64,000 nucleotides of DNA from a virus. This document shows, in pieces, positions 705 through 2,437 of the stretch. Position 1 is the stretch's first letter; every line of letters starts with the position of its first letter. The position numbers and the translations under genes are program-made. The stretch is taken from the IMG/VR virus record IMGVR_UViG_3300032294_001984, positions 3,967-67,966 of that record. One strand, 5' to 3'. The notes under the pieces are model-generated. The model saw nothing but the letters and a program-made list of their open reading frames with translations, was not told where the DNA came from and ran no database searches.

Positions 705-716
705 TCTAAAAAAAAA

Positions 717-744
717 TTGACATTTCAGGAACTTTTTCTACTAT
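717..744 (+). promoter_or_regulatory. Candidate promoter upstream of the leader ORF
   Basis: TTGACA (717-722), 16-nt spacer, TACTAT (739-744). Confidence 0.4.
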
Positions 745-785
745 TGAGATAGTTATATATTAAACAACAAAAATTTTAAAAAAAA

Positions 786-896
786 ATGAAACCAATAAAC
801 AAAAATATGATTAGTAAACGTCAACCCCAGATTAGTATCTGTTGGTATCCGCGTATTACGCATAGTTCGGTTATTGGTGAATCCAATATAAGTTAA
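786..896 (+). CDS. Putative leader (attenuator) peptide of the tRNA array, MKPINKNMISKRQPQISICWYPRITHSSVIGESNIS
   Basis: ATG786 (or ATG807) follows an A-rich tract and the ORF ends at TAA894-896. Codons at 807-857 match the anticodons of the downstream tRNAs. A terminator follows. Confidence 0.7.
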   Translation: MKPINKNMISKRQPQISICWYPRITHSSVIGESNIS

Positions 897-924
897 GATT
901 AAATTAATTAGTAATAAAATCGAG

Positions 925-965
925 AACCCCGAACTTCTAAAAAAAGTTTGGGGTTTTTTGTTTTT
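925..965 (+). terminator. Intrinsic terminator/attenuator between the leader ORF and the tRNA array
   Basis: Stem AACCCCGAACTT (925-936) / AAGTTTGGGGTT (944-955), followed by TTTTGTTTTT. Confidence 0.85.
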
Positions 966-989
966 ATACCCTGATAAAAAAAAAAGTTG

Positions 990-997
990 TAATTTTG
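990..997 (+). promoter_or_regulatory. Bacteroidota-type -7 promoter element (TAnnTTTG)
   Basis: TAATTTTG lies 20 nt before the boxA-like site, the same layout as upstream of the tmRNA. Confidence 0.5.
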
Positions 998-1017
998 TAT
1001 CGTCAAATAAAAAACGA

Positions 1018-1032
1018 AATTGTTCTTTGAAA
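1018..1032 (+). promoter_or_regulatory. boxA-like antitermination element
   Basis: AATTGTTCTTTGAAA. An identical 15-mer precedes the tmRNA on the minus strand (6827-6841). It resembles rrn boxA. Confidence 0.65.
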
Positions 1033-1050
1033 TAATGTAACCATAAAAAC

Positions 1051-1125
1051 AGGGGTATAGTCTCGGGGTGAGACGCTTGCTTTGGGAGCAAGAGGCGGGG
1101 AATTCGACTTTCTCTACCCCTACCA
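1051..1125 (+). tRNA. tRNA-Pro(TGG)
   Basis: Acceptor stem AGGGGTA/TACCCCT, anticodon arm CTTGC-TTTGGGA-GCAAG, encoded CCA. Confidence 0.92.
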
Positions 1126-1128
1126 TAT

Positions 1129-1200
1129 TGTCACGTAATTCAGTGGTAGAATCCTTCCCTGATACGGAAGTCGTCAGAGGTTCGAATCCTCTCGTGACAA
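1129..1200 (+). tRNA. tRNA-Ile(GAT)
   Basis: Acceptor TGTCACG/CGTGACA, anticodon arm CTTCC-CTGATAC-GGAAG, T-loop TTCGAAT. Confidence 0.93.
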
Positions 1201-1207
1201 CAAAAAA

Positions 1208-1273
1208 ATCGTTACTCGGTCACGAGTGAAGGTGTGTAATGATATCAACACCGCAGGTTAAGCGATATCCTGC
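1208..1273 (+). ncRNA. Unidentified small structured RNA (three hairpins) inside the tRNA array
   Basis: Stems TTACTCG/CGAGTGA, GGTGT/ACACC and GCAGG/CCTGC. It is a GC-rich island with no acceptor stem. Confidence 0.5.
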
Positions 1274-1278
1274 AATTC

Positions 1279-1349
1279 TCCCTCGAAGCTTTAAGGTGAA
1301 GCACGATACTTTTAATATCGAGAAGTTGGGTCGGTACCATCCGGGGGAA
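1279..1349 (+). tRNA. tRNA-Lys(TTT) with an atypical T arm
   Basis: Acceptor TCCCTCG/CGGGGGA, anticodon arm CGATA-CTTTTAA-TATCG, non-canonical T-loop GTCGGTA. Confidence 0.8.
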
Positions 1350-1359
1350 CAAATTTTAT

Positions 1360-1431
1360 GTTTGGATGGCCGAGTGGTTTAGGTTCTCGTCTGCAAAATG
1401 AGATAGGTCGGTTCGATTCCGACTCCAAACT
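1360..1431 (+). tRNA. tRNA-Cys(GCA)
   Basis: Acceptor GTTTGGA/TCCAAAC, anticodon arm CTCGT-CTGCAAA-ATGAG, U73 discriminator. Confidence 0.93.
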
Positions 1432-1442
1432 CAAAAAAAAAT

Positions 1443-1513
1443 GTATCTTTGGTGTAACGGTAGCATAAACGGTTCCAACCCGTTTGGTCAGAGTTCGAAT
1501 CTTTGAGGATATG
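1443..1513 (+). tRNA. tRNA-Trp(CCA)
   Basis: Acceptor GTATCTT/AGGATAT, anticodon arm AACGG-TTCCAAC-CCGTT, G73. Confidence 0.85.
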
Positions 1514-1524
1514 CAAATTTAATT

Positions 1525-1610
1525 GGAAGTGTTGAGCAAATGGTGTGCTCGCCTGTCTGTAAAATAGGTCCCTTGCGGTAAACTTGTAGGTTCAAGTCCT
1601 ACCACTTCCA
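1525..1610 (+). tRNA. tRNA-Tyr(GTA)
   Basis: Acceptor GGAAGTG/CACTTCC, anticodon arm CCTGT-CTGTAAA-ATAGG, long variable arm. Confidence 0.92.
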
Positions 1611-1617
1611 CATTTAT

Positions 1618-1688
1618 TGTTGGGTCGTCTAACGGTAAGACATCTCCCTTTGAAGGAGATTACGGTGGTTCGAATCCACCCCCGACAA
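1618..1688 (+). tRNA. tRNA-Gln(TTG)
   Basis: Acceptor TGTTGGG/CCCGACA, anticodon arm TCTCC-CTTTGAA-GGAGA. Confidence 0.92.
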
Positions 1689-1701
1689 CTTTTTTAATTA
1701 T

Positions 1702-1775
1702 AATCCCTTAGCTTAATGGAATGGAGCACTTGAATACGAATCAAGAGGTTGTGGGTTCGAATCCTTCCAAAACCA
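1702..1775 (+). pseudogene. tRNA-Arg(ACG) with an unpaired acceptor stem (chimeric or pseudo-tRNA)
   Basis: The D arm and anticodon arm (CTTGA-ATACGAA-TCAAG) are intact, but 5' AATCCCT cannot pair with 3' CAAAACC. Confidence 0.7.
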
Positions 1776-1780
1776 CAAAT

Positions 1781-1852
1781 TGCGATGTAGTTCAGTGGTA
1801 GAACGCTTGACTCATATCCAAGAAGTCGAAGGTTCAATTCCTTCCATCGCAA
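1781..1852 (+). tRNA. tRNA-Met(CAT) (Met, fMet or Ile2 identity not resolved)
   Basis: Acceptor TGCGATG/CATCGCA, anticodon loop CTCATAT. Confidence 0.88.
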
Positions 1853-1934
1853 CAATTTTTTCACAAATGATGTCCTTTTGATTTGGAAATTAGTGAGATT
1901 TTTTTTATATTTGCAGTTAATCAATTTTTATAAT

Positions 1935-2255
1935 ATGTTACAAAAAAGAAAAAATTCGTTTAAACGAATTGTTAAAGAATACAAAGATGCAACCACAAGA
2001 GAAATTATAGAAGCAATAGTGGATAATGCCTTATATGGGTTCTTAGGTGCGGTCATAGTAGTTGCGATTGCGACCAAAATGGATGTTGCGGTATTAGGTG
2101 CGTATTTCATTTATTATTCTTATGTCGGTAAAATAATCAATCGTCCTAAGTATGTTACCGACCTTGGTAAAATCGTTATATTCCCAACATCATCAGCGTT
2201 AGGAGCCTTTACCGGTTACAAATTGAGTTATCACATATTGGAGTGGTTAAAATAA
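1935..2255 (+). CDS. Hypothetical membrane protein inside the tRNA array
   Basis: Part of ORF 1878..2255, with ATG1935 the preferred start after a TATATTTG element. Two or three hydrophobic segments. Confidence 0.7.
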   Translation: MLQKRKNSFKRIVKEYKDATTREIIEAIVDNALYGFLGAVIVVAIATKMDVAVLGAYFIYYSYVGKIINRPKYVTDLGKIVIFPTSSALGAFTGYKLSYHILEWLK

Positions 2256-2256
2256 T

Positions 2257-2340
2257 GGAAGGTTGTCAGAGCGGTAATGAGGCAGTTTGCTAAACTGTGG
2301 TCGAGGAATCGGCCCGTGGGTTCGAATCCCGCACCTTCCG
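2257..2340 (+). tRNA. tRNA-Ser(GCT)
   Basis: Acceptor GGAAGGT/ACCTTCC, anticodon arm GCAGT-TTGCTAA-ACTGT, long variable arm, G73. Confidence 0.93.
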
Positions 2341-2437
2341 CAAAAAATAAAGTTAAAATAGTTGACAACGTTAGTAATATGGTCTATATTTATAATCTCA
2401 AGAATAATAATTTATAAACAAAAAAAATTTAGTAAAA

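Follow-up and report, generated by a model that had tools for sequence, protein, structure and literature searches.

A leader open reading frame that lists the tRNAs of a phage tRNA array: a candidate attenuator module and its relatives in viral contigs

The stretch analysed here (the window) comprises 64,000 nucleotides (nt) of the IMG/VR virus record IMGVR_UViG_3300032294_001984, namely bases 3967–67966 of a single contig of 67,966 nt with a G+C content of 31.5%. Its proteins include a terminase large subunit, a portal protein and a major head protein, and the source is therefore a phage. The stretch was present in 19 DNA runs from lake or freshwater metagenomes (contig-level data). Our subject is a module of the window made up of a short open reading frame (ORF), here called the leader, an intrinsic terminator and a boxA-like element. 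The module stands directly upstream of an array of transfer RNA (tRNA) genes (Table 1). The first-pass annotation, made from the letters of the window, had read this arrangement as a candidate attenuator that senses many tRNAs.

Table 1. Features of the leader module and the tRNA array, in positions of the window
Feature	Position	Strand	Description
Promoter P1 of the leader	716–746	+	ATTG, 19 nt, TACTATTG
Leader ORF	786–896	+	36 codons plus TAA; MKPINKNMISKRQPQISICWYPRITHSSVIGESNIS; A-rich 5' untranslated region
Listing run	807–857	+	17 codons, each readable by one of ten tRNAs or tRNA-like genes further downstream; all ten represented
Region 2 (predicted antiterminator strand)	864–870	+	AGTTCGG, complementary to CCGAACT at 929–935 in the 5' arm of the terminator
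Intrinsic terminator	925–965	+	5' arm 925–936, loop 937–943, 3' arm 944–955, T tract to 965
Candidate -7 box of a second promoter, 3' of the terminator	990–997	+	TAATTTTG; no TTTG 19 nt upstream
boxA-like element	1022–1033	+	GTTCTTTGAAAT, 12 nt, shared with Bacteroidota ribosomal RNA (rRNA) operons
tRNA array	1051–1853	+	Nine genes, Pro to Met; ARAGORN, Rfam
tRNA-Pro-TGG	1051–1125	+	ARAGORN default
tRNA-Ile-GAT	1129–1201	+	ARAGORN default
tRNA-Lys-TTT	1279–1350	+	Sub-threshold; relaxed ARAGORN only, no Rfam hit
tRNA-Cys-GCA	1360–1432	+	ARAGORN default
tRNA-Trp-CCA	1443–1514	+	ARAGORN default
tRNA-Tyr-GTA	1525–1611	+	ARAGORN default
tRNA-Gln-TTG	1618–1689	+	ARAGORN default
tRNA-Arg-ACG remnant	1709–1776	+	ARAGORN -ps80 only; partial Rfam hit, 33.5 bits
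tRNA-Met-CAT	1781–1853	+	ARAGORN default
tRNA-Ser-GCT, last array member	2257–2341	+	ARAGORN default; beyond the inserted ORF 1878/1935–2255

The leader ORF and the 17 codons from position 807 onwards are exactly as the first-pass annotation had quoted them. Its choice of the second ATG (807) as the start was arbitrary, as an alignment of 18 homologous modules shows the first ATG (786) to be the conserved start. Beyond the listing run, the ORF goes on for 12 codons, most of which do not match the array. Eight of the ten tRNAs said to lie downstream were called by ARAGORN at default settings, whereas Lys-TTT is sub-threshold and Arg-ACG is broken. Compared with its intact ortholog in the related locus L007 (5318–5395), the Arg gene has lost the 5' acceptor strand, as had been suspected. 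The claims on isoacceptors also agree with the codon usage of the phage: AGA and CGT make up 65% and 11% of the Arg codons, AGT plus AGC 23% of the Ser codons, and ATA 28% of the Ile codons. The leader peptide matched no PHROG family.

Taking the 21 codons that the first-pass annotation had counted as matching, the 17-codon run is the longest in the six frames of the whole contig. The runner-up has 11 codons, and the frequency of matching triplets is 0.33. Runs of 17 or more codons were obtained in one of 5000 composition-matched random genomes and in none of 300 first-order Markov genomes. The chance figure of 1e-8 given earlier holds per position only. A rule fixed beforehand, by which all codons from the ATG to the antiterminator segment are compared with the long ORFs of the phage itself, gave a match of 21 of 26 codons (0.32 expected, P=5e-7). 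Leaving out the broken Arg gene, the match was 19 of 26 (P=2e-5). When the whole ORF was scored with default ARAGORN calls only, 18 of 35 codons matched (0.23 expected, P=3e-4).

The same architecture heads tRNA arrays in ~60 IMG/VR contigs and in one GenBank phage of 735 kb. Relatives were fetched with the neighbouring aminotransferase gene as an anchor, which yielded 26 IMG/VR loci. The region 707–1060 is found with 98.9% identity in L007 and L008, again 5' of tRNA-Pro, and with 74% identity in L002 and L003. Paralogous copies, one each in L007 and L005, precede other sub-arrays.

Further modules were found with three sequence patterns. Pattern 1, consisting of GTTCG plus the terminator only, retrieved 36 IMG/VR loci with 37 modules. 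A tRNA gene on the same strand followed within 33–264 nt in 36 of the 37, and an ATG ORF of 25–36 codons was present in 24 of 26 distinct upstream segments. The two exceptions were a module at the start of its locus and another with neither ORF nor tRNA. Pattern 2 combined the 3' half of the terminator with the conserved downstream element and left the ORF, region 2 and the 5' arm unconstrained. It added 16 new loci, 14 of them with tRNA arrays, and these had different terminators and leaders. Two pattern 2 matches, in L193 and L197, lay within coding-like sequence. Pattern 3, the boxA-like downstream element alone, gave 114 matches in 113 new loci. A tRNA lay within 200 nt in 47 of these, and a terminator was recognised by a crude rule in 13 of the 47. 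The yield was 11 distinct modules, ten of which have a leader ORF.

The GenBank phage (LR756501.1, an uncultured phage) was found by a BLAST hit to its terminator and has the same arrangement. Altogether, ORFs of 22–52 codons occupy the leader position in 28 lineages, and such an ORF was found in every module with enough upstream sequence. A BLAST search of positions 600–2400 against 50,697 phage records gave tRNA-to-tRNA hits only and no leader homolog. With three other modules as queries, no cultured phage was found, and only the terminators of LR756501.1 and LR756503.1 were matched. An nhmmer profile built from five modules recovered no copies beyond those already known. The first-pass annotation had expected two patterns in related phages, a short ORF plus terminator before the tRNA array and leader codons that co-vary with the anticodons of each genome. 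The first is described above and the second below; both are present.

The codons of the leader follow the array behind it. For 12 lineages, matches of each leader to its own array summed to 235. The permutation mean was 192.6 and the maximum 233, and none of 200,000 permutations reached the observed value. In the permutation tests, L007a stands in for the window. A blind rule was applied to 28 lineages: the longest ATG ORF ending 20–130 nt before the T tract was scored as a whole against the tRNAs called by default ARAGORN within 3 kb. Here the sum was 440, with a permutation mean of 313 (standard deviation 16, maximum 384), and this value was likewise not attained in any of 200,000 permutations. 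Relative to codon usage in the long ORFs of each locus, the match was significant at P<0.05 in 17 of the 28 lineages and at P<0.01 in eight. The frame of the ORF scored best in 26 of the 28 lineages (440 of 906 codons vs 267 of 878 and 227 of 878). Moreover, every distinct anticodon within 3 kb was represented in 21 of 29 leaders. The listed codons are cognate to the tRNAs of the operon, enriched over background and in frame, as in an attenuator.

The 28-lineage test used one representative per near-identical leader. Dropped as near-identical were L003, L008, L028, L029, L032, L035, L037, L048–L051, L053, L057, L060–L063, L185, L188, L194, L196, L198, L199, L227, L249 and L299. Too little downstream DNA was available for L038, L039, L043–L045, L052, L054, L055, L058, L059 and L288, and L261 was dropped for having no ORF and a doubtful terminator. 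In the ARAGORN calls, anticodons with A34 other than ACG and anticodons of odd length were ignored, and CAT was taken as Met only.

The two paralogous leaders of L007 list their own sub-arrays ([[19,1],[4,13]], Fisher P=1.4e-5). The leader before Pro-Ile-Lys-Cys-Trp-Tyr-Gln-Arg-Met-Ser(GCT) has 19 codons read only by its own set and one read only by the other. Ahead of Val-Glu-Phe-Phe-Leu-His-Ser(TGA)-Met, the leader has 13 codons specific to its own set and four specific to the other. Ser is also encoded differently, by AGT in the former leader and by TCA/TCG in the latter. Arrays of other composition come with other lists. Where the array holds Leu only (L191), the leader carries CTG CTT CTC CTC CTA TTG TTA, with all six Leu codons. 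For the array Pro, His, Pro, His, Gln-CTG, Gln-TTG (L184), the core of the leader is QPQQHPQ, with both CAA and CAG; this frame was picked by eye, with an MKN start as in its relatives. The leader HSKHSSFSSKWF precedes Trp, His, Phe, three Ser and Lys (L189), and SKHSKHFSSSSKWF precedes Trp, His, His, Phe, Lys and Ser (LR756501.1). Likewise, TTGTTYQPKQYTQGGKP stands before Pro, Gln, Tyr, Thr, Gly and Lys (L204), and LYNIDLYLDMDD before Tyr, Leu, Met, Asp and Arg (L259).

An intrinsic terminator between the leader and the array had been claimed earlier, and its presence was confirmed. The stem comprises 15 pairs at 922–958, followed by the T tract, with a folding energy of -15.9 kcal/mol. In 19 lineages, the energies of the terminators ranged from -12 to -22 kcal/mol. 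RNAalifold, applied to 18 modules, recovered the terminator with 12 consensus pairs and nothing else.

Region 2 varies together with the terminator. It is an exact complement of the 5' arm over 6–9 nt and changes with eight or more terminator sequences. Examples of region 2 and its arm are GTTCGG with CCGAAC, GTTAGAGG with CCTCTAAC (L195) and GGATTTAG with CTAAATCC (L187). Further variants of region 2 are GAAGAGGG (L186), ATCGGGGT (L189), GACTGGG (L191), TGGGAGT (L192), GAATGGGG (L184) and GGGTTTGA (L210). For L185/L190 and L030, the automatic pick of region 2 differs from the GTTCGG segment. GTTCG is invariant in five BLAST homologs. In two of them (L005 and L007b), it follows the stop codon, so its conservation is at the nucleotide level and does not stem from coding. 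When RNA lacking region 4 (the 3' arm) was folded, a count of pairs placed region 2 on the 5' arm in 18 of 19 lineages; for the remaining one (L185), 12 pairs between region 2 and the arm are visible in the printed fold. By complementarity and folding, this antiterminator (2:3) and the terminator are mutually exclusive, as attenuation requires.

The spacing is also regular. Region 2 is located 28–55 nt 5' of the terminator arm. Its first nucleotide falls, in most lineages, within an interval from 30 nt upstream to 2 nt downstream of the stop codon. Listed codons are enriched 1.4- to 2.1-fold only at codons 72 to 10 nt 5' of region 2. From -9 to +8, the enrichment falls to 1.0–1.2, and in the first codons it does not exceed 1.0. 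The enriched interval is where a stalled ribosome would leave region 2 free, which is the position that attenuation predicts.

Promoter P1 is kept across the 18 aligned modules. TTG-N18-20-TAnnTTTG was found with at most one mismatch 5' of 17 of 29 leaders. P1 resembles what we take to be the -33/-7 promoter type of Bacteroidota. A possible internal promoter downstream of the terminator had been noted in the first-pass annotation, and it is real as a motif in the lineage of the window. Among 20 distinct spacers between terminator and tRNA, a TAnnTTTG box is present in 13 and absent in seven. In these seven, only 32–39 nt separate the terminator from the first tRNA, so the array can be reached there only via the terminator.

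The sequence GTTCTTTGA(A/C)AT follows the terminator in all modules. Its longer form, GTTCTTTGA(A/C)AT(N)TTGG, is identical to an element in many Bacteroidota 16S-23S spacers, where it stands after tRNA-Ala. A search for the 17-mer form in genomes returned 120 loci, and the 80 that were examined contained 81 matches. At least 33 of the 81 lay 81–390 nt after tRNA-Ala, with tRNA-Ile and the 3' end of 16S upstream, and most of these were from Bacteroidota. At least two lay 106–196 nt before the 5' end of 16S. We take these sites in rRNA operons to be the positions of boxA. The phage element thus shares its sequence with an element of the rRNA operons of the presumed host phylum at these positions. 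The part played by boxA in the antitermination of rRNA operons, as the NusB/NusE site, is described in passages of PMC10931766. Probably, the phage has copied a boxA-type antitermination site, and in the reading proposed here, this element would keep the polymerase going through a long untranslated operon. It also hints at a Bacteroidota host.

The boxA-like element is not restricted to leader modules, as many matches lie away from leaders. In viral contigs, 67 of the 114 matches had no tRNA within 200 nt, and many others were inside arrays directly after a tRNA. One copy was seen in L076, a 780-nt contig of a metagenome-assembled genome, between tRNA-Arg-TCT and Leu-TAA, Pro-TGG and Met-CAT. 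This contig is probably phage DNA in a bacterial bin.

The comparison establishes a conserved module in which leader codons co-vary with the anticodons of the array, and region 2 with the terminator arm. These two co-variations, together with the anatomy of a leader attenuator, support the reading as a multi-tRNA-sensing attenuator. We regard it as likely that the module is a ribosome-mediated (leader-peptide) transcription attenuator governing the phage tRNA operon. In the window, transcription would start from P1 at ~752, and the 36-codon leader would be translated while RNA polymerase proceeds. If all listed codons are decoded fast, the ribosome would cross region 2 and reach the stop codon at 894. 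With region 2 covered, the 925–955 hairpin would form, and transcription would stop at the T tract. If a charged cognate tRNA is scarce, the ribosome would stall at a listed codon and region 2 would stay free. Free region 2 is predicted to pair with the terminator arm and block the terminator, and the polymerase would continue past the boxA-like element and transcribe the tRNA genes. The supply of tRNA would thereby be under closed-loop control, with many tRNAs serving as inputs. Host anticodon nucleases as the trigger are a matter of speculation, and plain feedback on tRNA supply is sufficient to account for the data equally well. We hold it somewhat less firmly, though still as the probable case, that Bacteroidota phages carry a widespread class of such 'tRNA-catalogue' attenuators. 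In this class, the operon would be headed by a translated list of its own anticodons, and its transcription would be set by the speed at which the cognate codons are decoded.

Several observations weigh against attenuation or limit its support. Eleven of the 28 lineages remained at P>0.05 under the blind rule, most of them with arrays so large that almost any codon matches. Individual misses were L184 (a different frame holds the longest ORF), L210 (the ORF stays open further in the 5' direction) and L281 (8 of 30 codons, P=0.56). The tRNA sets were limited to the DNA fetched per locus and hence incomplete, and the lineages share ancestry, so the independence implied by the combined P values is overstated. 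A given tRNA has only one to four codons in the leader that lists it; classical attenuator leaders use codon runs.

The geometry and the folds of the window give further points of this kind. The stop codon lies 30 nt from region 2, at or beyond the edge of the footprint of a terminating ribosome, and such a ribosome may fail to mask region 2. The 2:3 helix is weak, with seven pairs and a fold of -14.5 kcal/mol vs -15.9 kcal/mol for the terminator. No conserved 1:2 helix (anti-antiterminator) was found by RNAalifold in the 18 modules. When the ORF was folded by itself, region 2 was paired with its first 30 nt in 14 of 23 lineages, and in untranslated leaders lacking region 4, the 2:3 pairing prevails in 14 of 19. 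On the default state without translation, these folds point in different directions. Moreover, the box at 990–997 may bypass the switch or give basal expression in the lineage of the window. The leader region (724–929) was covered by one 204-nt contig of a poly-A metatranscriptome run at a depth of 2.7, which is too thin for calling expression, and none of the contigs of that run covered positions 966–2400. DNA contigs likewise break at 925–955 because the terminator is a repeat, so the edge of the RNA contig is uninformative on transcript ends or on expression of the array.

Among other explanations, the one that survives best is an attenuator sensing general translation capacity (ribosome supply or coupling), with the codon match as a side effect. 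The terminator, the antiterminator and the geometry of the stop codon would serve any ORF. A general sensor, however, needs no codon list, and the list is specific to isoacceptors: the L007 paralogs differ in AGT vs TCN for Ser, L191 has six Leu codons, and L184, whose array has both Gln-TTG and Gln-CTG, uses CAA as well as CAG. It is also located where stalls would free region 2. We consider a general sensor unlikely.

It is very improbable that the leader is a small-protein ORF with its own terminator, followed by an independent tRNA array with a promoter 3' of the terminator. Such an arrangement would fit the -7-like box at 990–997 and the partial conservation of the peptide in the closest lineages (M-K/R-T at the start, C-W-Y-P-R). 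Yet the composition of the peptide changes wholesale with the array (all-Leu; T/G/Y/Q/P/K; S/K/H/F/W), no PHROG family matches the peptide, and GTTCG, conserved though it is, falls outside the ORF in L005 and L007b. Seven of the 20 spacers have no room for a promoter, and independence of leader and array is rejected by the permutation tests.

An RNA element that binds tRNAs directly and without translation, like a T-box with many specifier triplets, has an equally slim chance. Leader RNAs show a tendency towards structure (mean z = -1.5; nine of 29 below -2), and T-box leaders likewise end in a terminator/antiterminator pair. On the other side, a scan of positions 600–2700 against Rfam with E up to 1 gave no T-box hit and no other leader family at threshold; weak hits to MicC, Phe_leader and NrrF were far below the gathering scores and lay on terminators. 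The triplets stand in one frame, from an ATG to a stop near region 2, and no element able to pair with the 3' end of a tRNA was seen. Finally, a chance match in the window through post hoc choice of start, end and codon set (in the first-pass annotation, the start at the second ATG and the point where the run ends were chosen, two doubtful tRNAs were included and CCC was admitted by extended wobble) is refuted, as far as sequence analysis goes, by the permutation and frame tests, and it is further opposed by the rarity of such runs in random genomes, the significance kept under pre-fixed rules and the repetition in independent lineages with other amino-acid sets.

A leader-peptide attenuator of tRNA genes would have several known counterparts. 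The ilvGMEDA and thr operons of Escherichia coli (E. coli) have multivalent leader-peptide attenuators and serve amino-acid synthesis. The phage module shares with them a short leader ORF with codons for more than one amino acid, an intrinsic terminator and an antiterminator strand near the leader stop, and ribosome stalling would likewise favour read-through. In contrast to these operons, the phage module governs tRNAs and not biosynthetic enzymes. Its leaders list up to 14 or more anticodons with one to few codons each, and the list is specific to isoacceptors and not just to amino acids. Moreover, the element is phage-borne and has a boxA-like element 3' of it. The pheST attenuator of E. 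coli controls phenylalanyl-tRNA synthetase. There, too, a component of the translation apparatus is under the control of decoding speed at cognate leader codons, but the input is one amino acid, the output is a protein enzyme and the system is cellular.

T-box riboswitches similarly couple tRNA status to terminator read-through 5' of translation-related genes. They differ in that a T-box binds one uncharged tRNA directly and is untranslated, whereas the phage module has an ORF and a frame-specific signal. As for boxA of rRNA operons, 12–17 nt of the phage element are identical to the one after tRNA-Ala in Bacteroidota 16S-23S spacers. Unlike that one, the phage element heads a tRNA operon and stands 3' of a putatively regulated terminator. 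The Bacteroid-trp RNA motif of Rfam is a predicted leader-peptide attenuator in Bacteroidota and suggests that attenuation of this kind works in the phylum, but it has Trp codons only and lies 5' of trp biosynthesis genes. In literature searches, which did not cover subscription journals, no leader or attenuator of phage tRNA genes was found described, and we are aware of no regulator for arrays of this kind.

The reasons why phages carry tRNAs, and the ways in which they time and dose them, are an open question. If the module acts as proposed, it would be the first case of leader-peptide control over tRNA genes, and it would form a natural OR gate that takes many inputs from the host tRNA pool. 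A further use could be to raise the alarm when tRNAs are depleted, whether by anticodon nucleases of the host or by host shut-off on the part of the phage itself. A sensor of decoding speed would show that tRNA supply is actively balanced during infection, and it would make codon-usage compensation, replacement of degraded host tRNAs and escape from anticodon nucleases directly testable. Classical attenuation would be extended from amino-acid operons to the decoding machinery. The leaders would also be a built-in record of the codons that each phage tRNA is meant to read. As the leader predicts the array and vice versa, this could help to annotate uncultured phages, flag degraded or unrecognised tRNA genes and inform wobble rules. 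The module would, in addition, be a compact natural genetic switch with many inputs.

Some features of the array and its surroundings were noted besides. The tRNA-Ser gene lies past an inserted ORF, as the first-pass annotation had stated, and the same layout is found in L007, L008 and L051. This ORF (1878–2255, 106–125 amino acids, with hydrophobic stretches) stands between tRNA-Met and tRNA-Ser, is conserved in L007 and matched no PHROG family. Compared with L007, the window has an identical leader and identical Lys and Cys genes but strongly diverged Trp, Tyr and Gln genes; its array reads as a mosaic of swapped tRNA alleles. The spacer between tRNA-Ile and tRNA-Lys (1202–1278, 78 nt) contained no tRNA called by any tool used, and it is near-identical in L007 and present in L008 and L051.

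An aminotransferase-like gene (3–704 in the window, 3426–4670 in L001) lies 5' of the leader here and 3' of the array in most relatives. In L017, a copy of this gene with 99% identity is followed directly by tRNA-Met and tRNA-Ser, and the leader and the genes from Pro to Arg are missing. In the part of the contig 5' of the window (L001 1685–2898), there are three tandem paralogous ORFs of 122–143 amino acids that have motifs in common, among them FRWFR and CLKKLIEIVK. They are placed between a tRNA cluster (His, Ser-TGA, Met and a doubtful Phe) and the aminotransferase gene.

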